Assembly: GCA_934101595.1 (NCBI GenBank)
Contig: CAKORR010000001.1
Location: 107,558 to 171,557 of the forward strand
Direction of reading: 5' to 3'
Length of the DNA stretch: 64,000 nucleotides
From: an uncultured Bacilli bacterium
GTDB taxonomy: Bacteria > Bacillota_I > Bacilli_A > RF39 > UBA660
Part shown: positions 10,968-41,209 of the stretch, piece by piece
Position numbering within the stretch: position 1 is the first letter of the stretch
Layout: every line of letters starts with the position of its first letter
The notes under the pieces: model-generated
Databases searched by the model: none
What the model was told of the DNA's origin: nothing
What the model saw: the letters and a program-made list of their open reading frames with translations, nothing else
Position numbers and translations under genes: made by a program

Positions 10968-11019
10968 AAATTCACCTTTTTCATTAATATTTTAGCAAAA
11001 ACATTAACGATAAGTAAAG

Positions 11020-11352
11020 CTATTCTGTTTTCTGCTTATTCGAAGATAAAAATGTTACTTTTTCAGCTATAACATCAACGCTATACTTCTTTTCACCATT
11101 TTTTTCATAAGAAGAAGTTTGAATTCTTCCTTTAATACCAACTATATCTCCCTTTTTGCAATATTCTTTAGTATTTGAAGCAACTTGATTCCATAAAATA
11201 CATCTTATATAATCCGTATCATAAAGCCCATCACTGTTTTTAAAAGATCTAGCTACGGCTAAATTAACAGTCGTCTTTTTCTTTCCTCCTTCCATTTCCA
11301 CAACAGCCGGATCTTCAACTAATCTTCCAACTAAAACAACTTGATTTAACAT
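11020..11352 (-). CDS. single-stranded DNA-binding protein, short form lacking the acidic C-terminal tail
   Basis: 110 aa OB-fold beginning MLNQVVLVGRLVEDPAV. There is no D/E-rich tail with a terminal DDDIPF-like motif. Confidence 0.65.
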   Translation of the reverse strand: MLNQVVLVGRLVEDPAVVEMEGGKKKTTVNLAVARSFKNSDGLYDTDYIRCILWNQVASNTKEYCKKGDIVGIKGRIQTSSYEKNGEKKYSVDVIAEKVTFLSSNKQKTE

Positions 11353-11454
11353 AATAATTCTCCTTTCAAAAGTGTTATATCAATAAACAAAAAAAATAGC
11401 AAAACGCTAAAATTGTTTAATTAAAGTAAAACGATTACCAAAATATTATTTTAG

Positions 11455-11484
11455 CAAACAAAAAGATAAGATTTTGATCTTACC
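11455..11484 (-). terminator. intrinsic terminator downstream of sufB
   Basis: Minus-strand hairpin GGTAAGAT-CAAA-ATCTTATC followed by TTTTGTTTG. Also hairpin-plus-U-run on the plus strand. Confidence 0.5.
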
Positions 11485-11509
11485 TTTTTGCTAAAAAACA
11501 AATTTAATA

Positions 11510-12817
11510 CTATCGACAATTTAATAATCTATTTAACTCAACTGCGTACTCCATAGGAAGTTCCTTTTTAAAATCACTAATAAATCCCATTATAAGTAAC
11601 TCAACTGCTCGTTCTTCGGATAATCCTTTGCTTTGTAAATAAAACAGTTCTTCCTTTTTTAGTTTAGATACAGTAGCTTCATGTTCTAATGTTGAGGTGT
11701 TATTCTTTACTATATTTTTAGGGTATGTATCACTCTTTGAAGTATCATCAAGTAATAGTGTATCACACTTTATAACAGCTTTACTATTAATTGCACTTTC
11801 TTCTATTTTACTTACCCCTCTATAATTAGCAATCCCACCATCTTTAGCTATTGATTTACTCACTATGTTACTTCTAGTATTTTTACCAATATGAATCATT
11901 TTAGCTCCAGCATCAAGTGTTTGGCCTTCTTTAGCATAAGCAATACTTATTGAATTACCAACAGCATTATTTCCTATTAAAATACATGATGGATATTTCA
12001 TTGTAACTTTACTGCCTATGTTACCATCAACCCACTCCATTTTGGCATCATCATAAACAATCGCCCTTTTGGTAACCAAATTATAAACATCCAATGACCA
12101 ATTTTGAATTGTTGAATAACGCATTCTGGCATTATTTAACACAAAGATCTCAACCACTCCAGCATGTAATGAATTTGAGGAATAACTTCTAGCCGTACAG
12201 CCTTCAATATAATCAAGCTCTGCATGTTCATCAACTATAATAATTGTTCGTTCAAATTGACCTAAAGCTTCACTTTCAATTCGAAAATAGCTTTGAAGAG
12301 GTCTATCCAGTTTAGTATATGGTGGAACATATATAAAACTACCCCCACTCCATAGCGCTCCATTTAAAGCAGTAAATTTATTCTCATCATACTTTACCAA
12401 AGTGTTAAAATACTTTTTAAATAAATCAGGATATTTTTTTAAAGCATCATCAGTACTTAAAAAAATAACACCACTATCAAATTTATTTTTGTGATAAACA
12501 ACTTCACTTTCATATTGGTTAGTTACTCCGCCTAAGTATTTTTTTTCAGCATCAATAACACCTAAATCACAAAACTTTTTTTCTATTCCTTTGTCAACTT
12601 TGCTCCAATCGTCATAACTTTCGGAAACATCAGATTTATAATACATTATTTTGTCAAAATCAATATCTATATCAGGGCCAAAAGAAGGATTATCTAATTC
12701 TAAAAATTTATGATAAGCTTTTAATCTAAAATCAAGCATCCATTTTGGTTCCTTTTTTTTATTTGAAAGCTTGCGTATAAAATCTTCATTAAGTTTTTCC
12801 AATTTAACCACTTCCAA
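11510..12817 (-). CDS. sufB: Fe-S cluster assembly protein SufB (SufB/SufD family), stand-alone
   Basis: 435 aa with a C-terminal ...GFISDFKKELPMEYAVELNRLL matching the SufB C-terminal consensus. No sufC/D/S/U genes are adjacent. Confidence 0.6.
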   Translation of the reverse strand: MEVVKLEKLNEDFIRKLSNKKKEPKWMLDFRLKAYHKFLELDNPSFGPDIDIDFDKIMYYKSDVSESYDDWSKVDKGIEKKFCDLGVIDAEKKYLGGVTNQYESEVVYHKNKFDSGVIFLSTDDALKKYPDLFKKYFNTLVKYDENKFTALNGALWSGGSFIYVPPYTKLDRPLQSYFRIESEALGQFERTIIIVDEHAELDYIEGCTARSYSSNSLHAGVVEIFVLNNARMRYSTIQNWSLDVYNLVTKRAIVYDDAKMEWVDGNIGSKVTMKYPSCILIGNNAVGNSISIAYAKEGQTLDAGAKMIHIGKNTRSNIVSKSIAKDGGIANYRGVSKIEESAINSKAVIKCDTLLLDDTSKSDTYPKNIVKNNTSTLEHEATVSKLKKEELFYLQSKGLSEERAVELLIMGFISDFKKELPMEYAVELNRLLNCR

Positions 12818-12899
12818 AAAATATAATACACTATAATTTAATTTAAAACAATTGTATTTTTCTTACTTTTTTGTTACTATTATAAGGTAGGAGACTAAT

Positions 12900-13565
12900 A
12901 TGAAGAATATGGATAATGAAAATTATGACAACGACTTATTTTTTGATAACCTTAAAAATGATTATCCGCAGTTGGCTCAAATTAAGGTAAAAGAAAATGT
13001 CTTAACTTACAAAGATTATATTTTATCATTAAAAGGTTTTTCTTTATGTAGTTTAAAAAAAGAGACATTCTTATTGCTTCCATATGATTTTATAAATATT
13101 ATTAAAATACATCTAGATGTTTTAGAAGAAAATAATTATTTAGAAAAAAATGACTTTAACATAAATTATGCTTATTTAAGAATTCGAACTTATTTAGTTA
13201 AAAACCTTCTAACTGGTGATGAAATAGAAGAAATAAAATTTTTCATCCAATCATTTTTAGTATTGTTTAAAAATCAAGATTATTTAGTTGATAAAGCTTT
13301 GGATAAATTTATAAACATGCAAAATATTATTCGCGATTCACTTTACGATGCGAAACTAGATACTCCCGGAATTAGAATGATAAAGAATGAGTTAAATGGT
13401 AGTGATTTTTTAAAGGAAAAAGGCCCTAAACTAGTTTTAATAAATAGCAATTATCCAGAAACTATTAATTCAAAAGTAGGTAAAGAAGGATTTGGAGCCA
13501 CCACTCTAATAATTTACATTGTTATTAATATAGGAATTATTTTAGCTGTATTTTTACTTAAATAA
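12900..13565 (+). CDS. hypothetical protein with C-terminal TM helix
   Basis: 221 aa. One of only two clear plus-strand genes in the first 59 kb. Has a GGAG-type RBS and a C-terminal hydrophobic segment. Confidence 0.4.
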   Translation: MKNMDNENYDNDLFFDNLKNDYPQLAQIKVKENVLTYKDYILSLKGFSLCSLKKETFLLLPYDFINIIKIHLDVLEENNYLEKNDFNINYAYLRIRTYLVKNLLTGDEIEEIKFFIQSFLVLFKNQDYLVDKALDKFINMQNIIRDSLYDAKLDTPGIRMIKNELNGSDFLKEKGPKLVLINSNYPETINSKVGKEGFGATTLIIYIVINIGIILAVFLLK

Positions 13566-21706: not shown

Positions 21707-23902
21707 TTAATTTAAAAATCTATTCACTATTCTTTCTTTTAAGGTTGTTTTTCGATTAGTACTATAATCATTTAATACCGCACTAGTAAAAGCGTTAACA
21801 TCTCCTATAATTACAAGACTTTTTTTAGCTCTACTTACTCCTGTATAAATTAATTTATTATAAAGCATTTTTGAATACGATTTTGTAATAGGCATAATAA
21901 CGTGAGGAAATTCACTTCCTTGACTTTTATGAATAGTAATTGCATAAGCATGTTTAACATTAAACATATCTTCCTTTTTATAAATAACTTTAGTTCCTTC
22001 AAAATTAATAATTATTACATCTCTTTTACGTGGTGAAAATTCTTTTTTTATTTCCTCTATATAACCTATATCACCGTTATAAACATTGGCATCGGGATTA
22101 TTTTGGAGTTGTAAAACTTTATCTCCTTCTCTATAAGTGATGTCGCCGATTTTTATTTCCTTTTTATCTTTTTGAGGATTAAATATTTCTTGTAAAGTGA
22201 CATTTAAATTATCAATACCATTTTCTCCTTTATAAAGTGGAGCTAATATTTCTATATCATCAACACTTAAGCCCTTTTCTAGAGATAAATCACATATTTT
22301 AGCAATAGTATTTTTTATTTTTAGAGAAGGAACCTGTAAAAAATTATAATCATCTTTTTTAGAAAGTATATCTTCATCTATATTTTTTTCTTTAATATCT
22401 CTCGCTAAATACGGTATATATGAATCACTACTTTGCCTATATATTTCTTTCAAAGGACAGTACGAAAACATGTCACTATTAATTAAATCGCTAAGTATTA
22501 ATCCCGGCCCAACACTTGGTAATTGAAATGAATCCCCAACCAATACTAAAAGTACATTAGTAGTTATTCCTTTTAATAAAGATGAAAAAAGTAAAATATC
22601 TATCATTGATACTTCATCAACTATAATTAGTTTGTGATAATTTTTATTATATTCATTTATACCAAAATTATTTGTTTCTTTATTCCATTTTAAATATCTA
22701 TGAATTGTCATAGCTGGAAGAGATGTGGACATACTCATTTTTCTACTAGCCCTACCGGTCGGAGCAATAAGGGCAATGCTTTGGAAAACATCAATTGGAG
22801 ATAAATTATAAATAGAAGTATATATTTTTACAATGGCATTGATAATAGTTGTCTTTCCAGTTCCAGGACCACCACTTATGATAGTTACACGATTATTCAA
22901 AGCTTGATATATAGCATTTTTTTGCTCTTCGTTATATTTTATATGAGAACTATTCTCTATCTTTTTTATTTCTTCATCAATATTTCCTACTTTTTTTAAT
23001 GGTGTCTCAGTTATGGCATACAAATAATTTGCTATGTCAAGTTCCATTTCATAATACTCTTTTAAGTAATAATTTTCTTTTTCTAAAATTATTTTATTTT
23101 CCTCAATTAACATTTTAAGGATTTCATAAAGTGGTGAATCAGCTAGAGTAATATTAAAACTTATTGCCATTTCTTTTTTTATTTCACTAAAGCATGAATA
23201 AACATCTCCATTTTTGAAAGCTAAATATTCCATACTTTCTAAGGTACATGCTTTTAGTCTTGTTATATCTTCTTTATCATTAAATTTTGTAAAAATATCA
23301 TCTAATTTTTTAAAATCTATTATTTCTTTTAGTAGATAAATGTTACTTTTTATTATTTCTAGTGCTTCTTTATGATATTTATTATATATTTTAGTACTTT
23401 CATTCATTGAAAAACCATATTCTTTTAATTTAATGATTATATCTGAGACCGATTCATTAGCTAAGATGCTATTATATATTTTTTCAGCTTTATCTTTACT
23501 CATCCCCTTGATTTCCATAAGTCTTTCGGGATTATCTTTAATAATAGAAATAGCATCTTCTCCAAAGGCCTCAGCAATTTTTAATGCAGTTTTTTCACCG
23601 CATCCTTTAACTAAGGAACTACTTAAATACTCAACAATTGAATCAACATCACTTGGTTTTACTCTTTCATAGCTTTTAAATGAATACTGGTAACCAAATC
23701 TTTCATTATTAATATATTCTCCATATAAAATATACGTCTCTTCCATGTTTGCATCAAGTATCACACCAGTCACAGTTATAGTCTTATTTAAACTATCTTT
23801 TAATTCTATATCATTAGTTTCTTTAATACGAAAAAGAGCTACTTGAAAGCCCGATTCATTTTGATAAATTATTTTTCTTATTTTACCCTTGATGTAATCC
23901 AT
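21707..23902 (-). CDS. recD2: RecD2-like ATP-dependent DNA helicase (YrrC family)
   Basis: 731 aa. N-terminal HhH region. Walker A ISGGPGTGKTT, DEVSMID, and the C-terminal SH3-like/helicase motifs of RecD2. Confidence 0.85.
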   Translation of the reverse strand: MDYIKGKIRKIIYQNESGFQVALFRIKETNDIELKDSLNKTITVTGVILDANMEETYILYGEYINNERFGYQYSFKSYERVKPSDVDSIVEYLSSSLVKGCGEKTALKIAEAFGEDAISIIKDNPERLMEIKGMSKDKAEKIYNSILANESVSDIIIKLKEYGFSMNESTKIYNKYHKEALEIIKSNIYLLKEIIDFKKLDDIFTKFNDKEDITRLKACTLESMEYLAFKNGDVYSCFSEIKKEMAISFNITLADSPLYEILKMLIEENKIILEKENYYLKEYYEMELDIANYLYAITETPLKKVGNIDEEIKKIENSSHIKYNEEQKNAIYQALNNRVTIISGGPGTGKTTIINAIVKIYTSIYNLSPIDVFQSIALIAPTGRASRKMSMSTSLPAMTIHRYLKWNKETNNFGINEYNKNYHKLIIVDEVSMIDILLFSSLLKGITTNVLLVLVGDSFQLPSVGPGLILSDLINSDMFSYCPLKEIYRQSSDSYIPYLARDIKEKNIDEDILSKKDDYNFLQVPSLKIKNTIAKICDLSLEKGLSVDDIEILAPLYKGENGIDNLNVTLQEIFNPQKDKKEIKIGDITYREGDKVLQLQNNPDANVYNGDIGYIEEIKKEFSPRKRDVIIINFEGTKVIYKKEDMFNVKHAYAITIHKSQGSEFPHVIMPITKSYSKMLYNKLIYTGVSRAKKSLVIIGDVNAFTSAVLNDYSTNRKTTLKERIVNRFLN

Positions 23903-23910
23903 AATTTCTC

Positions 23911-24288
23911 CTATAAAAAATTTTTACTTGAATTATATAAATTAATAAGTTTATTAAATAAAATCTTATTATTTTTATTTTGTAAATATTCATTTTTAGC
24001 TGTATAAATTTTCCTTTTAATATCTGTTAATCCATTAAATTTGTTTTGATATTTAAGTTTTTCAATATCATTTTTAGAATAATGAATAAAGTTTTCATAA
24101 CGTAAAAGAGTATCATTAATTAAATTATCCAAATTATTAAATTGTTCATTTTTTAACAAAAACATAAATCCCGTATTAAATGGTTGATCATATTTTTTTA
24201 ACTTGTACATATCTAATTTTTGAAAAATGTCTATTACCCCAACAGGTTTACCATCTTTATTCTTTATTAAGTATCTCACTTTATTCAT
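23911..24288 (-). CDS. hypothetical cytoplasmic protein; candidate immunity/antitoxin partner of the upstream LXG-type protein
   Basis: 125 aa with no signal or TM. Sits immediately downstream of an LXG-like effector gene, where cognate immunity genes of polymorphic toxins usually lie. No recognisable motif. Confidence 0.35.
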   Translation of the reverse strand: MNKVRYLIKNKDGKPVGVIDIFQKLDMYKLKKYDQPFNTGFMFLLKNEQFNNLDNLINDTLLRYENFIHYSKNDIEKLKYQNKFNGLTDIKRKIYTAKNEYLQNKNNKILFNKLINLYNSSKNFL

Positions 24289-24329
24289 AAAATCATTCCT
24301 ATATCAATTATAATAAAATCAGAAAAAAA

Positions 24330-24363
24330 GTTCAATCAAAAAGGAACTAGTATTTAGTTCCTT
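24330..24363 (-). terminator. intrinsic terminator overlapping the stop codon of the 24362-25264 gene
   Basis: Minus-strand hairpin AAGGAACTA-AATAC-TAGTTCCTT followed by TTTTGATTG. Confidence 0.5.
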
Positions 24364-25264
24364 AATTATATTTTTCTATCGAAGTTATATTTCCCTTAAA
24401 TCTAGCATCGGAATTATAGTCACCGGTAGTTCCACCTTTGACTCTTATTGAATCTGGTGATGAGATATAAAACTCTACTAAATCTTTTTTAGTTCCATGA
24501 GAATGATACCAAGATCCTCCACTTGAATGAAAATTATTAGTATCGCTTCCCTTGGCGTCAACTATAATAACATCGAATTCATTTCCAGCATCGGTTTTAA
24601 CTTTAAAGGTGTCTCCCTCTGTACCATAATAAGTTCCCATTGCAACAGTATAGTATTTCTTTCCATCACCTTTATCGACATAACGCATTCCCGTATCATC
24701 AGTTTTAACATCAAAAGTTTGGCCTTCATATTTACCATATGGCATTGGTTTACCATTATTAATAGCATAAGCTGTTGTTGATTTATCTGTTACTTTCTCA
24801 TAATTAGTATATGATTTAAAAGATGTATCTCCACTTGGAACATCCATAGCGCTACCTACCGATGGTTCGGCTACATTAGTTTTTTGAGCTGCCTGTTCAC
24901 TTGCACTAGCGCCTAAAATAGCTTTAGCCGCTGCTACGCCAAATGTTAAAGGATCTTGTGAATAAACATCTTCTGCTTTTTTACCTTCAGATTCATCAAT
25001 TTTTTCTGTTTCTGTAGCTATTTCGTTTAACTTGGTTCTAACAGTTTCACCATAATTACCAAACTCTTCTACAAGGGCTACTAATTTGCTATAAGCAGTG
25101 GATATAGTGGCATTAGCAACACCTTGCAAATAGCCTTCTTCATTTATCTTATTTAGATTATTTTTATATTCAGTCAAACATGTATCAATATTATTTTTAG
25201 CTTTTTGTATTGTGCTTGCTAAGGTTTTTAATTCCTCAGGATTAACTTTTGTATAACTTGACAT
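24362..25264 (-). CDS. LXG-like N-terminal domain protein with uncharacterised C-terminal domain (candidate T7SS-type effector A)
   Basis: 300 aa with no signal peptide. N-terminal ~100 aa helical region with EEGYLQGVANATISTAYSKL (LxG + A-x-x-I-x-x-AY, like YeeF-type LXG domains). Linker ...DVYSQDPLTF.... C-terminal ~150 aa is a beta-rich D/G/K/T/Y-rich domain of unknown function, possibly 3D/YuiC-like (very uncertain). Confidence 0.5.
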   Translation of the reverse strand: MSSYTKVNPEELKTLASTIQKAKNNIDTCLTEYKNNLNKINEEGYLQGVANATISTAYSKLVALVEEFGNYGETVRTKLNEIATETEKIDESEGKKAEDVYSQDPLTFGVAAAKAILGASASEQAAQKTNVAEPSVGSAMDVPSGDTSFKSYTNYEKVTDKSTTAYAINNGKPMPYGKYEGQTFDVKTDDTGMRYVDKGDGKKYYTVAMGTYYGTEGDTFKVKTDAGNEFDVIIVDAKGSDTNNFHSSGGSWYHSHGTKKDLVEFYISSPDSIRVKGGTTGDYNSDARFKGNITSIEKYN

Positions 25265-25273
25265 AATACCTCC

Positions 25274-26167
25274 TTATTTCAAGTATTCATTAGACATTTC
25301 ATCATATTTTTGGTCTAATCGATTAGCTAAATCTTGTTTGGTTATTACCCCGTCCTTATTTAGATCTAATCCTGCATTATAATTATAATAAGACTCGCCT
25401 TTTGTTGCTAAAACATCTTTATTTGCTCTACCTGGTAAGAACATTATTGAATAAAGTGTTCCCGCATCAAGCTCTTGATCTTTATTATAATAATTGCAAT
25501 TTTTTACATATTTTTCAACTAAATCAAGTTGATCTGTTGCGGACATATTAGCTATTTCTTCAGTAGTGTAGCCTAAGCTTTTAGCTGTAGCTGGCATAAA
25601 TTGAATTAATCCTACTGCCCTAGTGCTTTTTTCAATGTGATTTGGATTTAATCCACATTCCGAATACATAATAGCTAGTAAGTCATTGGGATCACAATTA
25701 AGATTTTTAGCGACTTCTTCAACCTTAGCACTAAATCCTGGTTCAAACTTTTGATCCAAACTAGAGGCTAAATTAGCATCTATCACTGTTGTCGCAGTAT
25801 TTGAATTAGTTGTTTTAGCGTTTTCATTATAAGTAAGAGGATCCTTAGAATAGATATCCTCCTCTTTTTTCTGCTCTTCATTTTCAATCGCTTCAGTTGA
25901 CGAAACTATTTCTTTTATTTTACCATTAACAGTATCCGCATATTCTATAAAGTCATTTACCAGAGTAGTAATCCTATTATAGGCAATATTAATAGTTTCA
26001 TTAGCAATTCCTTGTAAGTAGCCATTACTACTAATACTATTTAAATTATGGCGATATTCTTCTAAATCAGATGCTAAATTATTCTTGACTGATTTAATGG
26101 AATTTGCTAAATCATTTAGCTCACTAACATTAACTTTAGTATAAGAAAAATTAGCCATTACTACCAC
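25274..26167 (-). CDS. LXG-like N-terminal domain fused to a family-1 lytic transglycosylase (SLT) domain (candidate effector B)
   Basis: 297 aa with no signal peptide. N-terminus has SNGYLQGIANETINIAYNRI. C-terminus has ...MYSECGLNP...AVGLIQFMPATAKSLGY (SLT E-S ... GLMQ...P-x-TA motif) and a Ca-loop-like DLNKDGVITKQD. Confidence 0.6.
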   Translation of the reverse strand: MVVMANFSYTKVNVSELNDLANSIKSVKNNLASDLEEYRHNLNSISSNGYLQGIANETINIAYNRITTLVNDFIEYADTVNGKIKEIVSSTEAIENEEQKKEEDIYSKDPLTYNENAKTTNSNTATTVIDANLASSLDQKFEPGFSAKVEEVAKNLNCDPNDLLAIMYSECGLNPNHIEKSTRAVGLIQFMPATAKSLGYTTEEIANMSATDQLDLVEKYVKNCNYYNKDQELDAGTLYSIMFLPGRANKDVLATKGESYYNYNAGLDLNKDGVITKQDLANRLDQKYDEMSNEYLK

Positions 26168-26451
26168 CTTGTGGCATTACTATCTTCTATTGCTCTTCTA
26201 TACAAAGCATAAGCATGTCTTGAAAGTACATTATTAAAGCTCTTTAACCATAGGCTACTACTTCTCATTTTGCCAGCATATCCAACTAGAGCTGACTTAT
26301 ATGCGGTAGCATCTACACCAACCCAACTTCTAGTATTATTAATAGCATTTAATAAATCATTGATTGTACTATTCATATCATCTAATAAAGAATCCATTTT
26401 TGCAATAGATGCTTTTACACTTTCATAATCAGCTGCGACTACATTCGCCAT
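26161..26451 (-). CDS. WXG100-family protein (EsxA/YukE-like)
   Basis: 96 aa. Two predicted helices with a central SWVGVDATAYKSAL (W-x-G at residues 43-45). Overlaps the start of the downstream gene by 7 nt (translational coupling). Confidence 0.75.
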   Translation of the reverse strand: MANVVAADYESVKASIAKMDSLLDDMNSTINDLLNAINNTRSWVGVDATAYKSALVGYAGKMRSSSLWLKSFNNVLSRHAYALYRRAIEDSNATRW

Positions 26452-26460
26452 TATATCACC

Positions 26461-26796
26461 CTATCCGTTAAAGTTTGTTGGATCAACACTTAATAAGTCA
26501 TTGTATTCTTTATTAAATTCTGATTCAATAGATTTTTCATCACTAATTATTCCATTAATATCATTTGCTACATTTCCACAATAATTATCAAATTTTTCAT
26601 AAACTTGTTTAATTTTAGTCATGTTATTATCAAAAGCCTCTAAAGCTGAACCTTCAATTTGTCCGGAATTAGCAAGCATTTGCATTGCACTAGAAAATGC
26701 ATTTAATGCATTTCCACAAACTCTTTGAGCTGTTTGCATACTTTTTAAAATATCGTTTAACTGATTTGTGTTAACTTGAGTATAACTATTATTCAT
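26461..26796 (-). CDS. stand-alone short LXG-like domain protein (truncated effector N-terminus?)
   Basis: 111 aa, MNNSYTQVNTNQLNDILKSMQ...NSGQIEGSALEAF.... Homologous to the N-termini of the 24362 and 25274 proteins. Ends ...SVDPTNFNG, right at the linker where the paralogs continue into cargo domains. Confidence 0.5.
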   Translation of the reverse strand: MNNSYTQVNTNQLNDILKSMQTAQRVCGNALNAFSSAMQMLANSGQIEGSALEAFDNNMTKIKQVYEKFDNYCGNVANDINGIISDEKSIESEFNKEYNDLLSVDPTNFNG

Positions 26797-26807
26797 TAAT
26801 ATTCCTC

Positions 26808-27101
26808 CTAATCAAAAATTCTAGCATTTCTGTCGCTTTGAGCTCTTTCATATAGTCTCTCGGCATGACTAATTGCTTGGTTCCCTGCAGCTTCCATCCA
26901 TGCTGCACTATTTTTTAATTTTTGGCAAAAATCTAAAAGTGCTGATTTATGAGCAGTTGCATCTACTCCTTGCCATTCTGTAGCATTATTAATTGCACTT
27001 TCTAAGTTGGAAAGTGCTCTAATCATTTCACCTCTTGAAGATGAAGTTTGGTTAATTCTTGATTTAACCAATTCAAAATTTGTTGCAATATTTGAATTCA
27101 T
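26808..27101 (-). CDS. WXG100-family protein (EsxA/YukE-like)
   Basis: 97 aa with a central EWQGVDATAHKSAL (W-x-G at residues 43-45). Paralog of the 26161-26451 protein. Confidence 0.75.
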   Translation of the reverse strand: MNSNIATNFELVKSRINQTSSSRGEMIRALSNLESAINNATEWQGVDATAHKSALLDFCQKLKNSAAWMEAAGNQAISHAERLYERAQSDRNARIFD

Positions 27102-27124
27102 TTCCCATTCTCCTTATCATTCTA

Positions 27125-27153
27125 AATATATAAAAAATATTCTTCAATGTCAA
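27125..27153 (-). promoter_or_regulatory. candidate sigma-A promoter of the WXG100/LXG operon 1 (TTGACA-17nt-TATATT)
   Basis: TTGACA is the reverse complement of 27148-27153. A 17-nt spacer follows, then TATATT (reverse complement of 27125-27130), about 20 nt upstream of the 26808-27101 start. Confidence 0.45.
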
Positions 27154-27164
27154 TTTAACATATG

Positions 27165-27191
27165 AATGTTTACACTATGCATGTAAACATT
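27165..27191. repeat. perfect 10-bp inverted repeat AATGTTTACA-N7-TGTAAACATT just upstream of the operon-1 -35 box
   Basis: Read directly from the sequence. It has no following U-run on the minus strand, so it is not a classical terminator. It overlaps the stop codon of the 27190-28587 gene. Candidate operator. Confidence 0.5.
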
Positions 27192-28587
27192 AATACTTCG
27201 ATAAAATAGTTCTAAAAGTCTTATCTCCTCTTGGTAAAGCATCAGTAATTCCATGATCAAACAATCCTGAATACCCGCCACCTCTAAATGATCCACCTCG
27301 TTTAATCCATGGAAAACTTGAGGTAGCAAAATAAGATAAGTTACCATACCAAGATTGATATTCAGTAGTATTTGCTTTAGTTTCAAAAGTAGCATCACCC
27401 AAATATCCACGGGTATGATCGAGCATTGCTCCATTATTGTACAATGTATAATACCTCGTTTCTTTAGGAAGTGAACCATTATATCCACCAATATTATCTG
27501 GAAGATTAGGACCACTAATAAGTCCCATTACACACTCCCAAGAACCACCTACCAAATCGTAAATACCATAGATATTACCTGTTGAAGAAGCACCTGTACC
27601 ATAAATTGAAACATCATATTGGTATCTACAATTTGCACTACCTCCAGTTGACACGGTACCAGCTGAACAACCAGTTAATTGATTATCCCAATTATCACTT
27701 CCCATGGCATTATTGATATAAACTCTTTTTACTTTAAAATCATTATTACCAGGTTTTCCATAATTGCTATAAGTAAAATAAGCAATAGCTCCCCATTCCA
27801 TATTTGTTATTATACGTGATGGAGTATCCAGTCCATAACTATCTTTAATCCCTGTTGCGTATTTCCACATAGTAGCCATATTAATGCTTGCTATAGGCTT
27901 TTTATTAGGAACAAGTCTTACTAAATTATTTTCAAGACTTGGTTCAAATTTAGCAATCCAAAAGCCATCTAATTCATAAGTATCTCCGCTTTTATATTGA
28001 GCGGTAAATGCTGGATGTGTATAGTATTCTCCATTTTTTATGGTAGTTTTCTTCGGCGTTGTTTTAGATACTATATTAATTTCAATAATTTGCTCTTTAA
28101 CAAGCTTTTTATCTACATTAAATAATTTGTACTCAAAACGCGGAATCCATACAAAAAAGCCTAAAATTTCATCTAAATTTATTATTTCACCAGGAAGAGC
28201 ATTAGAATATTTTTCGCGATACTCTTCTTTAGCTATTACTACATTAGCCCACCATTCTTTAGAATAATCGTACCATTTTTCTAAAGGATCAGCTTTTTTC
28301 CACGTTTTCTCTTCGAAATCATAATAAACCGGAATCATTGTATTATCAACTAATGGATCACTACCGTTAAGTGTCGGATCACTATACATAGATACAACTG
28401 GTTCATGATTTGGCTTCGCCTTTTCTTTTTCAAAAACATCAACACTTTTATACATAATATGTACATTTGGAAAGAATAATAAACCAAGCGAAATTAGAAT
28501 AAAAAATAAACTTAAATAGGTGATTTTTAACCATACATTTTTACCACTCATGCTTAACACCTTACTATCATTACTATGGTAACACAT
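27190..28587 (-). CDS. membrane-anchored protein with SUMF1/FGE-like (formylglycine-generating-enzyme family) C-terminal domain
   Basis: 465 aa with an N-terminal TM helix. C-terminal region has NMEWGAIAYF, VGGSWECV and WIKRGGSFRGG, reminiscent of FGE-sulfatase (DUF323) RGGSW motifs. Assignment is tentative. Confidence 0.4.
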   Translation of the reverse strand: MCYHSNDSKVLSMSGKNVWLKITYLSLFFILISLGLLFFPNVHIMYKSVDVFEKEKAKPNHEPVVSMYSDPTLNGSDPLVDNTMIPVYYDFEEKTWKKADPLEKWYDYSKEWWANVVIAKEEYREKYSNALPGEIINLDEILGFFVWIPRFEYKLFNVDKKLVKEQIIEINIVSKTTPKKTTIKNGEYYTHPAFTAQYKSGDTYELDGFWIAKFEPSLENNLVRLVPNKKPIASINMATMWKYATGIKDSYGLDTPSRIITNMEWGAIAYFTYSNYGKPGNNDFKVKRVYINNAMGSDNWDNQLTGCSAGTVSTGGSANCRYQYDVSIYGTGASSTGNIYGIYDLVGGSWECVMGLISGPNLPDNIGGYNGSLPKETRYYTLYNNGAMLDHTRGYLGDATFETKANTTEYQSWYGNLSYFATSSFPWIKRGGSFRGGGYSGLFDHGITDALPRGDKTFRTILSKY

Positions 28588-34559: not shown

Positions 34560-36086
34560 TTAACTAATATTTAAATCTGCAAATGTATTTGTCGAATAAT
34601 ATCCAAATTTAACGTTATTTTGATTTAAACTTGTATTACCTTCGAAAGGTTTATACTTAGTAGAACTAAGTGTTATTGTTTTATTAATTGTTAAACTATT
34701 TAATTTATTATTTTTAAATGCCGATGAATCAATGGTTACTTCGGAGTTTATCTCTAACTCTGTTATGTTATTACTAGAAAAAGCGTTGTCGCCAATTTCT
34801 TTAAGAGTTGTCGGTAAATAAACATTTGTTAATCCACAATTGGAAAACATTTGCTGTGCTATTTTTTCTAGCCCTTCAGGTAATTCCAATTTAGATATTT
34901 TAATCCCAGGAAAGTATTCATAATCTCCTAAATTCAATTGTTTTAATTTACTTAAATCCACAAGATTGTAAAAACAATCTGTTCTATCTGAGTCATACAT
35001 GCAACTTGCAGAGTTATATAAACCAATTATATAATCTGTACCCATTACTACTTCGGTAGGATTATTTCCAGAATAGTCTGTGCCGCTTTTTAAATACATA
35101 AACTTTATACCATTGTATACGCTGCTGCCATCGTCATTTGTATAGTCGTCGCCAATGCCAATCATTGAATTTGGAATACTAAACAAATCTTTGCTTACTT
35201 CATCAGATAATTCACTATATCTTATAATGCTTTTCGTTTCATAACCACTTTCGCTCGCATCAAATTGATTTACTGCAGCACTTAACGTATTATAATTAGC
35301 TTCGTCAAGAATTACATAAACGTCTTTTGATTCATTTGTGTCTTGATAATATAAAACATTTCCCTTTTGAAAAGCCGGGTTAATCATATTTTTTGGCGTT
35401 ATTCCTTTAATTGTTTCGGGAACTATTATATTTTCACCACATTTATAATTGTTATAGTAACCCAAAAGTCCATTTGATCCTATCAAGAAACAATCTTCGC
35501 TACTTTCTTTTATCCCCTTTTGTGTTTGGCTTGCTACTACTACTACTTTACTATCAAACACCTTATTTTGTTCGGTCATTGGTGTATTTTCATCCATCCA
35601 CATTTTTATACTATGAGTTTTGCTTTTATCCTTTTCACTTGTTCCTAATACTCCAACATATAGTTCTTTATCAAATCTTGCATTTGCCTCTTTTTTGACA
35701 TTTACTGTTTCATATTTAGTAAGAGCTCTTCCCACTTTATTATCTAGAGCTATTTTTATATTACTTTCATCTATATAATTTGTATTTGTGCTATTTGTTA
35801 ATGCCTCTAAATTTACAGAATATGATATTTCATTATTACAATTATTTGTTACGGTAAATTGATATCCGCTTCCTTTTATTCCTTCGCTATCTGGTGTTGG
35901 AAATGTATTATTTAGGGCTATTCCATCTCCATTATCACTAAAGTTTATATCCAAACATGACGAAGTTAATGTATTTACTCCACTTTGACTTTTTGTTACT
36001 TGCCATAACGCATATGTTCCTGCTACTACTAGCGTTATTAATAACATTACTATTATGCTTGTTAAAATTATCTTCCTCTTATTCAT
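34560..36086 (-). CDS. exported surface protein, paralog 2 (TasA-like signal + LRR), driven by a poly-G-containing promoter
   Basis: 508 aa. Residues 5-225 are identical to paralog 1, then a mosaic divergent middle and a similar LRR C-terminus. RBS GAAGGTAGG. Confidence 0.6.
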   Translation of the reverse strand: MNKRKIILTSIIVMLLITLVVAGTYALWQVTKSQSGVNTLTSSCLDINFSDNGDGIALNNTFPTPDSEGIKGSGYQFTVTNNCNNEISYSVNLEALTNSTNTNYIDESNIKIALDNKVGRALTKYETVNVKKEANARFDKELYVGVLGTSEKDKSKTHSIKMWMDENTPMTEQNKVFDSKVVVVASQTQKGIKESSEDCFLIGSNGLLGYYNNYKCGENIIVPETIKGITPKNMINPAFQKGNVLYYQDTNESKDVYVILDEANYNTLSAAVNQFDASESGYETKSIIRYSELSDEVSKDLFSIPNSMIGIGDDYTNDDGSSVYNGIKFMYLKSGTDYSGNNPTEVVMGTDYIIGLYNSASCMYDSDRTDCFYNLVDLSKLKQLNLGDYEYFPGIKISKLELPEGLEKIAQQMFSNCGLTNVYLPTTLKEIGDNAFSSNNITELEINSEVTIDSSAFKNNKLNSLTINKTITLSSTKYKPFEGNTSLNQNNVKFGYYSTNTFADLNIS

Positions 36087-36176: not shown

Positions 36177-36548
36177 CTAATTATTATGAGCACTATCATT
36201 ATTTAGTGCCATTGATTCAATCTTAATACTATCACTAGCATTTTCAATGTCTTTTGAAACTTCTGTATCAGTACCTTGTTCAGCTTCTACAGTGTCGTTA
36301 ATAAACTTTGTCATATCGGCAAGTTCGTTTTGTAATGTTTCAATAATAGATTGTGATCCACTATTACAAAAGCTATTAAAATCTTCAAAAAATCTTTCGC
36401 TTTTTGGTCCGATCCATGATTTGTTTTCTTCAAGATTTTTAAAGTCTTTTAAAATGGTTTCAATATTTACGATAGTTGAATTCATATAGTCTTTTAACTT
36501 TGATGATATATTTAAAACTTCATCTGTATTTATATATTTTTCTTGCAT
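36177..36548 (-). CDS. WXG100-like small helical protein (W-I-G-P-K-S subtype)
   Basis: 123 aa with a central ...ENKSWIGPKSERFFEDF. Homologous to the 40493-40810 protein (YWLGPKSAIFAEKI). Acidic C-terminal tail. Confidence 0.6.
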   Translation of the reverse strand: MQEKYINTDEVLNISSKLKDYMNSTIVNIETILKDFKNLEENKSWIGPKSERFFEDFNSFCNSGSQSIIETLQNELADMTKFINDTVEAEQGTDTEVSKDIENASDSIKIESMALNNDSAHNN

Positions 36549-36555
36549 AATTCAC

Positions 36556-36825
36556 CTACCTATAAATATCTATTTGTTGATACTCTTTAATATATCTTGA
36601 AAGTTTTTCATTATAATTTTTTAATCCATTAACTACTTTTCTTAGATATACAAGGGTTTCTCCATTTATGTGCCTATCGAATGCTCTTTGATATTTACTA
36701 CTCCAAGCTGTGGTATTACCTGTTAAGTTTTGAATTAATGGAATATTTTCTTGCACTCTTTGGATTAATGTAGCGATATCTTGACAAGCATCAGAAACAT
36801 CTTGATATTTAATTTTTGTATTCAT
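36556..36825 (-). CDS. small helical WXG100-like partner protein (degenerate W-S-S)
   Basis: 89 aa, ...TAWSSKYQRAFDRHINGETLVYLRKVV... Homologous to the 40823-41095 protein (GEWKGKYQEEYDNHINGKTEKYLRKLV). Confidence 0.5.
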   Translation of the reverse strand: MNTKIKYQDVSDACQDIATLIQRVQENIPLIQNLTGNTTAWSSKYQRAFDRHINGETLVYLRKVVNGLKNYNEKLSRYIKEYQQIDIYR

Positions 36826-36840
36826 AATAATCTCCCTTTT

Positions 36841-38511
36841 TTATGAAGCTTTATTTGCTTTCGCATAAATGTTGCCTGTATTTATATAAGAACCTTTTTC
36901 TAATCTTGTATCAACCCCTTGTTTCTTTTGATAATAATTGGCAATCTCATCAGCACTTTTACCTGCTAACTCTTCTTCAGTAAAGTCTGTTTTAGCATAT
37001 TCCAAATGCAAATGGGTTCCAGATGATCGGCCTGTACTTCCCATTATACCAATTGGACTATCGTCTGTTATAACATCGCCGGCTTTAACTTTAGGAGTCT
37101 CTCTTAAGTGGGCATATCTACTCATATAATACGATATAGTTCCATCATCATTTATTACCTCGTGAAGCATAACAACTTCATTACCATAGCCATAATTTGA
37201 ATGTCCTGAATAGACTACAACTCCCTCTTGGATAGGTTTTATAGAAACATTTTCTCGTGATCCCTCAGGAACATAATCACAGCCCCTATGGTCAAAATAA
37301 CCATTACCAGTGCCGTCTTCACTCCATCTCGAATCTATGTATGAACTAATTCTATATGCGTTATTTAATGGCAAATTTATATCTGTTTTTTCAAAAGAAG
37401 AGGCTTCAACGCTCCAACTTGATTTTGAAAGTTTTTCGTAAGAAGCTAATTTATTTATAACTAATGGCTCTATTTCTTCTTTCTCGGCATCAATATAAGT
37501 TTTAGTTACATTTCCTAAATCATTAGAAGCACCTTTTACAGTTGAAGCTAAACCAGGGATTATTATAACTTGGCCAACTTCTATTTGATTTGGGTTAGAA
37601 ATAGTATCTCTATTTGCTTCATATATTTCTTCCCAATCAACACCATACTTTTCAGCAATTTTACTTAATGAGTCACCGCTTGCAATAGTGTATTTCAAAG
37701 GCTCTGTTTTTTTCTCTCCTTCTACTTCCTCATTTAAAGTTTCATCTGCTAAATCTATTAAAACAACGTCTTCATTATTCTCATATTTTGTAATATTATC
37801 AATATGATTTTTACTTTTAACTATAACATCTGTAGCAGCACTTTTTATTTTCTCGATATTTTTTATGATAACACTTCTAAAAGTGCCAATTGGTTCTCTT
37901 ATTATTTTCGCTTTACCATTATACTTTGATATAACTTCCAAAGTACGATTATCATATGTTGAATTACCTAAAGCAGTAATTGTATTTTCACATATTGTAA
38001 TAAGATTTTCGAATAAAGTCGTAACGTTTTCTGCAAAATCTGTTTGGATGCCGAAAACTTCATTTCTTATCATGCCCTGAACTGCAGGTATATTCCAATA
38101 AATTTTAAATTCTTCTCGTAAAATACCAATTCTACGTTGAGTATCAATAAGTTTATTTTTAGCCCTATAATATTCTTGCATATAATGTTCCCATACGGAT
38201 GTCGAAGCCGTACCATCATTTACATGTTCTTTCATAACGGCACAATTATCAAGAGCATCCATAAATTGCTGAAGATCTATTTTTTCTTCTTCAACAAGTA
38301 TAACCATTTCATCTAATTTATTTATTTGATTGATTACATTATTAACAGATGGATATCCAACACTATTAACCATATCTCTTAACTTTTGGCCAACTTGAAA
38401 AGCAACAAACCCCACCCAAGGATCGCTTTCGCTATCACCAAAAAGAGAATTCGGAGCAATTCTTCGAGAAGTTAAAATCCAATTTTGTAAATCAGTTGTA
38501 TTTATGGCCAT
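36841..38511 (-). CDS. LXG/WXG-like N-terminal domain + LysM + M23 (LytM-type) metalloendopeptidase (candidate effector I)
   Basis: 556 aa with no signal peptide. N-terminus has SLFGDSESDPWVGFVAF (L-x-G and W-x-G). LysM at YTIASGDSLSKIAEKYGVDWEEIYEANRD...GQVIIIPG. M23 motifs FDHRGCD (HxxxD) and GTHLHLEY (HxH) are intact. Confidence 0.65.
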   Translation of the reverse strand: MAINTTDLQNWILTSRRIAPNSLFGDSESDPWVGFVAFQVGQKLRDMVNSVGYPSVNNVINQINKLDEMVILVEEEKIDLQQFMDALDNCAVMKEHVNDGTASTSVWEHYMQEYYRAKNKLIDTQRRIGILREEFKIYWNIPAVQGMIRNEVFGIQTDFAENVTTLFENLITICENTITALGNSTYDNRTLEVISKYNGKAKIIREPIGTFRSVIIKNIEKIKSAATDVIVKSKNHIDNITKYENNEDVVLIDLADETLNEEVEGEKKTEPLKYTIASGDSLSKIAEKYGVDWEEIYEANRDTISNPNQIEVGQVIIIPGLASTVKGASNDLGNVTKTYIDAEKEEIEPLVINKLASYEKLSKSSWSVEASSFEKTDINLPLNNAYRISSYIDSRWSEDGTGNGYFDHRGCDYVPEGSRENVSIKPIQEGVVVYSGHSNYGYGNEVVMLHEVINDDGTISYYMSRYAHLRETPKVKAGDVITDDSPIGIMGSTGRSSGTHLHLEYAKTDFTEEELAGKSADEIANYYQKKQGVDTRLEKGSYINTGNIYAKANKAS

Positions 38512-38595
38512 ATTACCACGTCTCTTTCCCTATTCTTTATCATGTTAATTATAATATTATTCTCACATTAAATCAATTATAAAATTAAATACATT

Positions 38596-38623
38596 AAAAT
38601 AAAAATTACAGGGCACCCTGTAA
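38596..38623 (-). terminator. GC-rich intrinsic terminator between the LysM-SLT and LysM-M23 genes
   Basis: Minus-strand hairpin TTACAGGG-TG-CCCTGTAA (plus 38606-38623) followed by TTTTTATTTT. A TTGATT-17nt-TATAAT promoter candidate follows at about 38540-38575. Confidence 0.55.
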
Positions 38624-38627
38624 TCTT

Positions 38628-40484
38628 CTACATTATATCTCGTAACATTTCCGTATACTTCTTATTTAAACGATTAGCTAGATCTTGTTTAGTTATTACT
38701 CCATCGCCATCCACGTCTAAACCCCTATTATAAGAATAATAGCTTTCGCCTTTGACACATAAAGTATTTTTCTTGGCTCTACCTGGTAAGAACATAACCG
38801 CATATAATGTACCAGCATCTAATTCTTCGCCATTTTTGTAAGGACTAGCGCTTTTAATATATTTTTCAACTAAATCAAGTTGATCTGTTGCGGACATATT
38901 GGCTATCTGTTCAGTCGTGTAACCAAGATTACGAGCAGTGCTTGGCATAAATTGGATAAGGCCAACAGCTCTACTACTGCTTTCAATATGAGATGGATCA
39001 AGAGCACATTCTGAATACATAAGAGCAAGTAAATCATTTGGATCACAATTAACATTTTTAGCGACTTGTTCTAGTTTAGCACTAAATCCTGGCTCGAATC
39101 TGTCATCCAAACAACTTGCTAAAGCACTATCTAATACTTCTACTTTAGGAGAGCTAGTATTAGTACTTGTCTGAGCCGCGGATACTCCTTTTTCATTTGC
39201 TCTTTTATGGGCAGCTTCATTTCTATCTTTAGTTGCTTGTTCTCTTTCACTAATTTCCTTAGTATCACTTTCTTTAGATACAGCTTCTTTAACTTCTGTT
39301 TTTTCTTTAACCTCAGATTTTTTATCATCCTTACCAGATTCTGTTTCGTCAGTCTTTTTAGTTGCCACACTAACAGAACCAATGGCTGCAGCACCAATTA
39401 CGCCTTCAAATACTGGAGGGTTAATATCAAATGCTTCCTCTTCTTTTTCCTCAAACTTAAGACCTGTATATTTGCTAATAACATCTGCGGCACTTACAGG
39501 ATCATTACTTTCTTCTTTTTGACCTGGAATTGTAAGCACTTGTCCAGGATATATCAAGTTTGGATTATCGATCTTATCAGCGTTTGCTTCATAAAGCTCT
39601 TTCCAGTCAATTCCATATTTCGCTGCAATTTTAATTAAATAGTCACCTTTTTCAACAACATATGTTCCGTGATTAGAAGATGTACTATCACTACTAGTCC
39701 TTTTTCTTTCTTTAGCATATTCAAAGTCATTACGATATTCAAATTGTTTAATCTTGGCAAAATGATATTTTAACAAATTTAATTGGCGAGTTGCTTCATC
39801 AAGACATTTTTTAATATTAACTTTTATATTATTACACGCTGAATAGAAAAAACCACTAACTTGATAATCACTAGAAGATAAATCGTCATTGCCACTTGGA
39901 ATTTGAAAATCACTTGACCTCATGGAATTCATATTCAACATTTGCATATTTAAATATTTTACTATATTATTTAAGGGCTCAATGACTTGCTTCTCAAAAG
40001 TTGCTAAGTTTATCTCATATTTATCTGAATTATAGTTTTCCCATGGAGTAACCTCTATTTCCACAATTGGAGTTAAAACAGAAACTATTTCTTCTTTCTT
40101 TTTGATGATTTTCTTTTTTAATTCTTTAAGTGTCGAAGATATTATAATCTTTTGTTGAGCCAACATATAAACGTCCGCATGATCTTTATATGCAATTTCT
40201 TCATCTATAGTTTTGCACGCTTTGTATTTACTTTCATAAGATAACTTTAGGGCAAGTAAACCATCGGTTGGATTCATTACTAAATCAACCGCTTTGCTAT
40301 AATCTTTTAGCTGGTACATAATGCCTTCATTTTGGATATAGCTCAACATTCTATCAATAATATAGCATCTCCGCTTTAATTCAGCTGCTCTTTTTCCGTA
40401 AAACATCAAAGTTGCCGGATTAAATCTTTTAGATATCTGATATGCAAGAAAAATATTATTTGTATCTATTTTTACTTTAACCAT
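38628..40484 (-). CDS. LXG-like N-terminal domain + LysM + family-1 lytic transglycosylase (SLT) (candidate effector H)
   Basis: 618 aa with no signal peptide. N-terminus has ...LMFYGKRAAELKRRCYII (compare F-x-G-K-x-A-x-x-I-K of LXG domains). LysM at YVVEKGDYLIKIAAKYGIDWKELYEANAD...GQVLTIPG, then a K/E-rich low-complexity linker. The C-terminal SLT domain is about 70% identical to that of 25274-26167 (MYSECALDP...AVGLIQFMPSTARNLGY). Confidence 0.65.
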   Translation of the reverse strand: MVKVKIDTNNIFLAYQISKRFNPATLMFYGKRAAELKRRCYIIDRMLSYIQNEGIMYQLKDYSKAVDLVMNPTDGLLALKLSYESKYKACKTIDEEIAYKDHADVYMLAQQKIIISSTLKELKKKIIKKKEEIVSVLTPIVEIEVTPWENYNSDKYEINLATFEKQVIEPLNNIVKYLNMQMLNMNSMRSSDFQIPSGNDDLSSSDYQVSGFFYSACNNIKVNIKKCLDEATRQLNLLKYHFAKIKQFEYRNDFEYAKERKRTSSDSTSSNHGTYVVEKGDYLIKIAAKYGIDWKELYEANADKIDNPNLIYPGQVLTIPGQKEESNDPVSAADVISKYTGLKFEEKEEEAFDINPPVFEGVIGAAAIGSVSVATKKTDETESGKDDKKSEVKEKTEVKEAVSKESDTKEISEREQATKDRNEAAHKRANEKGVSAAQTSTNTSSPKVEVLDSALASCLDDRFEPGFSAKLEQVAKNVNCDPNDLLALMYSECALDPSHIESSSRAVGLIQFMPSTARNLGYTTEQIANMSATDQLDLVEKYIKSASPYKNGEELDAGTLYAVMFLPGRAKKNTLCVKGESYYSYNRGLDVDGDGVITKQDLANRLNKKYTEMLRDIM

Positions 40485-40492
40485 ACCTTCAC

Positions 40493-40810: not shown

Positions 40811-40822
40811 TTCTTCACCTAC

Positions 40823-41095: not shown

Positions 41096-41182
41096 TCTAT
41101 CACACACCTTACTATAATAATAATAGCATATTATTATTCGATTTTTTAATTTATACTTACATTTAATGTAAATAATATGTAT

Positions 41183-41209
41183 ATAAAAAAGAAACATTTT
41201 TAATGTTTC
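41183..41209 (-). terminator. intrinsic terminator overlapping the mutS stop codon
   Basis: Minus-strand hairpin GAAACAT-TAAAA-ATGTTTC followed by TTTTTT. Confidence 0.5.

Follow-up and report, generated by a model that had tools for sequence, protein, structure and literature searches.

We report that a minus-strand operon (24362-27101) in a 64-kb stretch of DNA from an uncultured Bacilli bacterium (contig CAKORR010000001.1, positions 107,558 to 171,557; the whole stretch is hereafter called the window) probably encodes enzymes that cleave the glycan strands of peptidoglycan, that are devoid of a signal peptide, and that would be exported by a WXG100-type rather than a Sec-type tag, in dependence on a type VII secretion system (T7SS). 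Its products belong to two families of small helical proteins or domains. The first comprises the W-x-G proteins A1 and A2, and the second, found in B1, B2, and B3, stands alone in B1 and precedes an enzyme-like cargo domain in B2 and B3. The genes, their paralogy, the conservation of the cassette that they form, the identities of the cargo domains, and the swapping of these domains were all read directly from the results of the tools used.

Organization of the operon

The operon and the sequences that follow it comprise these features:

27125..27153, minus strand: sigma-70-like promoter TTGACA-17-TATATT, upstream of A1 (11 of 12 positions; top site within 23600-27400)
26808..27101, minus strand: A1, 97-aa putative divergent WXG100-like protein (W43-Q-G45), with an AAGGAG ribosome-binding site in front
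26461..26796, minus strand: B1, 111-aa stand-alone B-type protein, a predicted hairpin (turn G45-Q-I-E-G49; C-terminal S-V-D-P-T-N-F)
26161..26451, minus strand: A2, 96-aa putative divergent WXG100-like protein (W-V-G; isoelectric point, pI, 9.0)
25274..26158, minus strand: B2, 294 aa, ATG start; B-type tag (~25826-26158), linker, and SLT cargo (~25277-25795)
24362..25264, minus strand: B3, 300 aa; B-type domain (~24938-25264), Ala-rich linker, and predicted double-psi beta-barrel (DPBB)-like cargo (~24365-24859)
24368..24883, minus strand: exchangeable cargo cassette within B3, delimited by blastn against the strain locus L008
24341..24363, minus strand: intrinsic terminator closing the operon directly after the 300-aa gene (hairpin AAGGAACTA...TAGTTCCTT, then a T-run)
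23911..24288, minus strand: 125-aa basic open reading frame (ORF) outside the system, a separate unit apparently co-transcribed with recD2
21707-23902: recD2, downstream of the 125-aa ORF

An earlier note on this DNA had proposed six minus-strand ORFs (the five genes of the operon and the 125-aa ORF), the promoter, and a terminator after the 300-aa gene. All six ORFs were recovered at the coordinates that it gave, its promoter is the best sigma-70-like site of the region, and the hairpin with its T-run was found at 24363-24341. The 7-nt overlap proposed between A2 and the next gene proved to be an artefact of the choice of a GTG start, since the ATG at 26158, which is associated with a GGTGG Shine-Dalgarno sequence and is also the start chosen by gene callers (294 aa), leaves a gap of 2 nt between A2 and B2. 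The other gaps between the operon genes are 11, 9, and 9 nt long. None of the six proteins contains a signal peptide or a membrane segment (maximum 19-residue Kyte-Doolittle value below 1.0), and the picture of a tightly coupled operon that combines small W-x-G proteins with enzymes devoid of signal peptides is supported. Orthologous A-B-A'-B::cargo cassettes occur in other metagenomic lineages (53-68% protein identity), and the operon genes are real rather than chance ORFs.

A1 and A2 are very divergent WXG100-like proteins

A1 and A2 are paralogues (39% identity) that both carry the sequence W-x-G-V-D-A-T-A-[H/Y]. Their size (97 and 96 aa) and the position of W43-x-G45 near the middle of the protein are those of WXG100 proteins, and A1 has orthologues sharing 63-68% identity. 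When compared with curated hidden Markov models (HMMs), A1 gave no match to the WXG100 model and matched the PPE model with an E-value of 0.0034, while A2 stayed under the curated cut-offs of both WXG100 models, PF06013 (E=0.088, 13.5 bits vs 27.3) and TIGR03930 (E=0.067, 13.4 vs 44.85). At the level of the family, five of the seven A-type members match PF06013 weakly, with a best E-value of 3.3e-4. A profile built from these seven proteins aligns over its full length to Mycobacterium tuberculosis EsxB/CFP-10 in the PDB, with the W-x-G motifs in register (E=0.02). The YxxxD/E motif was sought by eye in the A-type alignment, which shows conservation neither of the Tyr nor of the acidic residue at +4. 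We consider that A1 and A2 are, as judged from their sequences, very divergent WXG100-like proteins lying below every curated threshold; the WXG100 identity previously given to both genes thus holds for motif and length and does not hold for the curated HMM scores.

The B-type domain resembles a WXG100-sized hairpin

B2 and B3 share 51% identity over 107 aa at their N-termini (E=1e-33), a similarity that breaks off precisely at D-P-L-T-[Y/F]. B1 aligns to them along its whole 111 aa (~25-28% identity) and terminates five residues past the shared D-P motif. The B domain ends at residue 106-111 with the conserved C-terminal motif [D/N]-P-x-x-[F/Y]. Its turn motif is Y-L-Q-G in B2 and B3, which thus contain an L-x-G, and Q-I-E-G in B1, the Gly being invariant in 22 of 22 relatives. 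Stand-alone proteins of the B1 type (109-113 aa) make up a conserved sub-family that splits into several clusters at 50% identity, so that B1, previously regarded as a truncated LXG-like protein, is instead a member of a stand-alone family ending at the same [D/N]-P-x-x-[F/Y] motif.

LXG domains are about 200 aa long. None of B1, B2, and B3 matched the LXG model PF04740 at E<=1. The best matches of these proteins were to the WXG100 models and were sub-threshold (for B3, PF06013, 8e-6, 26.4 bits vs 27.3, and TIGR03930, 1.4e-6), and B1 matched TIGR03930 below its cut-off as well (E=6e-5). Within the B-domain family (n=22), WXG100 was weakly matched by 13 members, LXG by seven (best 0.0026), and DUF5344 by two (E=0.027). 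The family profile matched the LXG structure of TelA (8gmh_B) with an E-value of 0.03 and EsxA/EsxB at ~0.04-0.08. An AlphaFold2 (AF2) model of full-length B3, computed from seven sequences and of poor confidence (predicted local distance difference test, pLDDT, of 47), has long helices at 9-42 and 47-101 joined by a short turn at 43-46; in this low-confidence model, Y-L-Q-G (residues 45-48) would lie just after the turn, at the start of the second helix. A Foldseek search with that model was uninformative for the N-domain.

Because PF04740 is not matched, the domain spans ~110 aa, its WXG100, LXG, and Esx matches are weak, and the model predicts two helices, we propose that the B domain is a WXG100-sized hairpin of the WXG/LXG superfamily and not an LXG domain. 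The LXG membership formerly assigned to the three B proteins is therefore not retained. In the HMM check that the earlier note had called for, LXG was not matched and WXG100 was matched only below threshold, and what stands is a helical N-domain of the WXG/LXG superfamily. A Gly/Ala/Val-rich stretch was also observed directly past [D/N]-P-x-x-[F/Y] in cargo-bearing B proteins. It covers residues ~100-112 of B3 (24929-24965), has an equivalent in P0013, P0019, P0025, and P0028, and reaches ~60 aa in P0028, in the form of semi-hydrophobic repeats; the stretch may serve as a flexible linker or as a segment that interacts with the membrane or the wall.

The cargo domains resemble cell-wall enzymes

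The cargo of B2 was correctly recognized from the start as SLT: it matches PF01464 with 35.7 bits, above the gathering threshold of 21.3, and the motifs YSEC (E-C in place of E-S), GLIQ, and NYNAG are readable in it. The C-terminal 165 aa of B3 had no match in Pfam, NCBIfam, PHROG, or PDB-sequence searches, and the 3D (PF06725) and DPBB_1 HMMs were matched neither by B3 nor by its Sec-type relatives. An exhaustive HMMER search retrieved hundreds of relatives of this cargo, and the domain is carried by 134 of the 158 proteins collected. Most relatives are 200-260 aa long and start with a hydrophobic N-terminus that fits a signal peptide or a membrane anchor, according to a crude hydrophobicity count, and some are fused to CHAP, Big_2, or fn3 domains.

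The AF2 model of the B3 cargo, computed from a 42-sequence alignment, is confident (pLDDT 88, predicted template modelling score of 0.86), and Foldseek comparison of this model with the PDB ranked the DPBB fold class, with no significant match. Three conserved residues, D236, K238, and E264 (B3 numbering), are particular to the family. The model suggests that the B3 cargo is a new DPBB-like domain of the MltA/RlpA/expansin fold class: the domain that had been described as beta-rich and unknown appears to be DPBB- and cell-wall-enzyme-like. The domain also occurs in 51 viral contigs; in the two that were inspected, it lies within a baseplate-hub protein encoded between the tape measure and the baseplate wedge. 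The IMG/VR loci L040 (7533-9506) and L035 (6501-8438) display the arrangements CHAP + DPBB + hub and M23 + hub + DPBB.

The cargo types of the B-tag family are SLT, Phage_lysozyme2, 3D, and DPBB-like, with P0043 combining a B-type tag and a bona fide 3D domain. The family showed no nuclease, deaminase, or NADase cargo, and every cargo with an identifiable fold appears, from its sequence, to be of the peptidoglycan glycosidase type. Given its predicted fold and its domain context (baseplate hubs, CHAP and M23 neighbours, and the B-tag cargo repertoire), the best-supported activity for the B3 cargo would be cleavage or binding of cell-wall glycans.

The cassette recurs in other lineages and exchanges its cargo

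The four-gene unit A-B-A'-B::cargo recurs at other chromosomal sites in other metagenomic lineages. In L009, the order is spoIVB, A98, B111, A98, B::cargo (420 aa), then spoIIGA, while in L012 and L013 two units, [A98-B112-A99-B::Phage_lysozyme2] and [identical A98-B112-A99, B::DPBB], are found between rpoC and miaA. In a variant, L007, the cargo protein itself carries a W-x-G. By comparison with these loci, the operon at 24362-27101 is a four-gene cassette to which a second cargo gene has been appended. The L012 locus (9026-13453) is a tandem duplication of the whole cassette in which the small genes are identical, the tags near-identical, and the enzymes different (Phage_lysozyme2 vs DPBB-like); it seems to capture a stage in the diversification of cargo by duplication and recombination.

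Cargo exchange is also found between strains. The L008 locus is 98.8% identical to the window up to 24884 and 99.6% identical from 24367 onward (blastn), and only the 516 bp encoding the B3 cargo (24368-24883) are replaced, by an unrelated segment of 574 bp. The alternative cargo of the resulting variant protein, P0003, belongs to no family in Pfam, NCBIfam, PHROG, or PDB-sequence searches. A variable C-terminal domain on a constant N-terminal tag, as found in polymorphic toxins, is seen here in an allelic swap, in tandem cassettes, and in four cargo types, and such a precise allelic replacement fits the behaviour of polymorphic effectors at the sequence level.

Pattern scans of 185,579 GTDB species representatives for A-type and B1-type proteins returned no relatives and no copy adjacent to a T7SS, a metagenome scan returned an identical locus only, and divergent B-tag proteins were located on contigs of ~1 kb without neighbouring genes. 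Many metagenome contigs of the species (L002-L006) end inside B2 or at the polymorphic junction of B3, and the database protein P0002 is a chimera of the B3 tag and threonyl-tRNA-synthetase. Assemblies are apparently interrupted or wrongly joined by the repeated tag and the allelic cargo, and this may account for the absence of the locus from representative genomes. A phage origin of the cassette was considered and rejected because viral contigs contain neither the A nor the B1 family.

The downstream ORF is not a cognate immunity gene

The 125-aa ORF had been proposed as an immunity gene. It lies behind the operon terminator and is preceded by a promoter-like site of its own (TTGAAC-17-TATAAT, 24335-24307), and its stop codon overlaps the ribosome-binding site of recD2. 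Its sequence is 100% identical in L008 despite the swapped upstream cargo, and it is absent downstream of the same DPBB-like cargo domain in L007, L009, and L012. The protein has a pI of 9.7, contains no signal peptide or membrane segment, and matched no family in Pfam, NCBIfam, PHROG, or PDB-sequence searches; peptidoglycan hydrolases act outside the membrane. Because it is located behind a terminator, is invariant across a cargo swap, is absent elsewhere, and encodes a basic protein devoid of a signal peptide, this ORF appears to be a separate gene, apparently co-transcribed with recD2, and the proposed immunity role is not upheld.

No conserved downstream gene covarying with the cargo was found in L007, L009, and L012, and these loci contain no conserved alternative immunity candidate. 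In L009, a 104-aa protein encoded after the DPBB-cargo gene (2746-3060) looks multi-pass and membrane-embedded from its sequence and has no family match. It is the only plausible surface-located immunity candidate seen and is not conserved in the other loci.

A model for export and the alternatives

From these results we infer how the hairpins pair, that export depends on a T7SS, and which target the enzymes reach. The enzymes have no signal peptide, most relatives of the B3 cargo have a hydrophobic N-terminus, and SLT enzymes act outside the membrane, so that the helical N-domain would hold the position of the export signal. In the proposed model, A and B hairpins pair into WXG100-like four-helix bundles, likely A1 with B1 and A2 with the tag of B2 or B3, and the basic A2 is compatible in charge with the acidic B domains. 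Within a bundle, the W-x-G turn of A would adjoin the [D/N]-P-x-x-[F/Y] C-terminal arm of B, and this pair of motifs would be analogous to the composite signals WxG + YxxxD/E or LxG + FxxxD. A type VII ATPase of the EssC/TsxC type, with its gene at another place in the genome, would recognize the complex, and the exported enzymes would then cut the glycan strands of peptidoglycan, most likely those of neighbouring cells and possibly those of the producer's own wall. Two precedents are consistent with this model: the genes of T7SSb effectors lie downstream of those for small, helical, WXG100-like targeting factors, which make up the export signal (PMC10801868), and short WXG-type N-terminal trafficking domains exist on polymorphic toxins (PMC3482391). 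As for the target, the swapping of cargo speaks for antagonism, and the lack of immunity for an activity that is self-directed or tolerated in some other way.

Several results weigh against T7SS-dependent export by paired hairpins. Homology between the A and B profiles is undetectable (hhalign probability 5%), A1 is without any WXG100 match, and all WXG100 and LXG matches are below curated cut-offs. No significant match to the Lap families DUF3130, DUF3958, DUF5344, and DUF5082 was obtained for A1, B1, and A2, and the specific A/B pairings given above are a conjecture. No T7SS core gene (EssC/FtsK-SpoIIIE ATPase, EssB, EsaA, YukD-like) was found among the ORFs scanned or annotated in the window, nor in the ~7 kb past its left end, the ~10 kb past its right end, and the related loci retrieved; it is because these genes are missing from the window and the ~7-10 kb beyond each end that T7SS export is something we infer. 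Finally, no linked immunity gene was found in the four lineages examined, which is unusual for an antibacterial effector.

This last point is also the first argument for the most serious alternative, which we rate as rather unlikely and in which the same export serves a housekeeping role: the enzymes would be autolysin-type remodelling factors of the producer's own wall and not antibacterial weapons, with possible jobs in opening the wall for the secretion apparatus (as EssH in Staphylococcus aureus), in cell separation, or in sporulation and germination. The cassettes are surrounded by core genes, with spoIVB preceding them in L007 and L009 and lying nearby here, and with rpoC and miaA on either side in L012; this location would agree with such a role, as would a cargo that is wall-cleaving only and never a nuclease or NADase, and EssH provides the precedent of a peptidoglycan hydrolase serving a T7SS (PMC10765036, PMC13059805). 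However, EssH is not described as a WXG- or LXG-tagged substrate, the proximity of spoIVB may be mere lineage synteny given that L012 differs, and the allelic replacement of cargo, like the tandem cassettes that differ in it, is a hallmark of effectors of a diversifying, conflict type. A role unrelated to T7SS, in which the proteins would be assembled into the spore coat or cortex from the mother-cell cytoplasm or would follow an undescribed export route, seems improbable to us. CwlJ, a lytic enzyme that has no signal peptide, is a precedent for assembly into the spore. The organism sporulates (spoIIGA, sigE, sigG, spoIVB, spoVS), in two lineages the cassettes are directly adjacent to spoIVB and spoIIGA, the retrieved DNA yielded no T7SS machinery, and all the WXG100/LXG similarity is sub-threshold. 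Against this reading, the W-x-G of these ~97-aa proteins is located at the predicted hairpin turn and the full-length alignment to EsxB is in register, and the B domains repeatedly match WXG100, LXG, and EspC models and nothing else consistently. Moreover, small helical genes upstream of the effector mirror the Lap-LXG layout (PMC10801868), and the genes of T7SS substrates often lie far away from those of the machinery (PMC10765036).

The reading from which the earlier note started, a classical LXG polymorphic toxin operon whose cytoplasmic immunity protein is the product of 23911-24288, is largely refuted, and we give it very little credence. The ORF is immediately downstream, small, and without a family, and the B2 and B3 turns contain an L-x-G (Y-L-Q-G); however, a terminator and a separate promoter-like site stand between B3 and the ORF, whose stop abuts the ribosome-binding site of recD2, the ORF is unchanged downstream of a different cargo and absent after the same cargo in three loci (L007, L009, L012), its product has no signal peptide while the predicted target is extracellular, and the B domain has half the length of an LXG domain and leaves PF04740 unmatched. 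Returning to T7SS-dependent export by WXG100-type tags, a more far-reaching proposal can be made tentatively, and we hold it to be possible although doubtful: the operon may represent an undescribed class of type VII substrates, defined by the A-B-A'-B::cargo order, a WXG100-sized tag together with a free copy of it, a cargo made solely of peptidoglycan glycosidases, and no dedicated immunity, and the same joint claim, with the same reserve, would include a new DPBB enzyme family that phage baseplate hubs also contain. Such a class would constitute a T7SS-dependent "exported autolysin/lysin" pathway in an uncultured gut lineage of Bacillota. In a more radical version, the organism may be devoid of an EssC-type ATPase and the hairpin complexes may use an unfamiliar export route.

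Comparison with known systems

By analogy, the system would work like an LXG-Lap or a WXG-type T7SS effector module. It resembles the LXG-Lap systems of T7SSb (TelA-LapA3-LapA4 and TelC-Lap1-Lap2 of Streptococcus intermedius) in its effectors devoid of a signal peptide, its helical N-terminal domain with an [L/Y]-x-G turn, its small alpha-helical WXG100-like proteins translationally coupled directly upstream, and its variable C-terminal domain, and the B profile weakly matches the LXG structure of TelA (8gmh_B). In contrast to these systems, the B tag is ~110 aa instead of ~200 aa long and fails PF04740, there are three partners instead of two, none of which belongs to a Lap family and one of which, B1, is a stand-alone paralogue of the effector tag, no immunity gene is present, and the cargo is restricted to peptidoglycan glycosidases. 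The likeness to WXG toxins and heterodimeric pairs such as EsxA/EsxB and PE/PPE (PMC3482391) lies in the ~100-aa hairpins, of which one partner bears W-x-G and the other a conserved C-terminal arm, in the short WXG-sized domain N-terminal to a variable cargo, and in the alignment of the A profile to CFP-10; the differences are the scores below the PF06013 and TIGR03930 cut-offs, the motif [D/N]-P-x-x-[F/Y] instead of YxxxD/E, and the lack of an adjacent EccC/EssC. The system thus fails the tests for LXG membership (HMM, length, Lap families, immunity) and those for curated WXG100 membership.

EssH of the S. aureus T7SSb likewise hydrolyses peptidoglycan and has a functional connection with type VII secretion (PMC10765036, PMC13059805), but it is a CHAP enzyme encoded at the T7SS locus and not described as WXG/LXG-tagged, whereas the enzymes studied here are tagged and of glycan-cleaving types. 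As for the cargo, MltA/3D/RlpA/YuiC lytic transglycosylases are related to the system by P0043, in which the same B-type tag carries a bona fide 3D domain, and phage baseplate hub-hydrolases by the DPBB-like domain of B3, which stands beside CHAP or M23 domains in hubs. Unlike both groups, the B3 cargo matches no Pfam, NCBIfam, PHROG, or PDB sequence and has its own conserved residues D236, K238, and E264.

The T7SSb reviews consulted mention peptidoglycan hydrolases only as accessory factors such as EssH, and a full-text literature search found no published description of a WXG- or LXG-tagged lytic transglycosylase. If the export model holds, glycan-cleaving peptidoglycan hydrolases would join the proteins that themselves bear a type VII export tag. 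The compact architecture, with its hairpin tag of ~110 aa, two W-x-G partners, and a free copy of the tag, would be comparable with the LXG-Lap heterotrimer, and this comparison could show what a T7SS ATPase minimally recognizes. A widespread unannotated DPBB domain would also receive a name and a testable function. Since there is no immunity gene, one may ask how a Gram-positive producer tolerates its own exported glycosidases.

Genomic context and neighbouring genes

The window has a G+C content of ~28%, and its genes are almost all co-oriented. It contains the core and sporulation genes ftsA, ftsZ, spoIIGA, sigE, sigG, recD2, spoIVB, nusB, xseA, mutS, lon, and ileS, spoVS is found in it or in its related loci, and the DNA ~7 kb to the left and ~10 kb to the right contains housekeeping and sporulation genes only. 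The same DNA is present in many human-gut metagenome assemblies, including Hadza samples.

A second operon, of a different build, lies at 36177-41197 on the minus strand. Its small W-x-G-like proteins number three (124 or ~90, 105, and 123 aa), and in each of its two enzymes a helical N-domain of ~270 aa precedes LysM and then either SLT (618 aa) or an M23 peptidase (556 aa). B2 and the 618-aa protein (38628-40484) carry closely paralogous SLT domains (136/230 identities including the linker), so that the same SLT cargo is mounted on two targeting modules in one genome.

Directly upstream of the promoter of the A1-B3 operon, the minus-strand gene at 27190-28587 encodes a protein of 465 aa that has a single membrane segment, at its N-terminus, belongs to no Pfam or NCBIfam family, and matches PHROG weakly (E=6.5e-5). 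It is preceded by genes for a zinc-ribbon membrane protein and a clostripain-family (C11) peptidase and does not belong to the conserved cassette of other lineages. Finally, four paralogous BspA-type leucine-rich repeat (PF13306) proteins of 500-600 aa are encoded among housekeeping genes (6574-8109, 34560-36086, 48357-50030, and 50131-51951) and are probably surface proteins of a gut organism.

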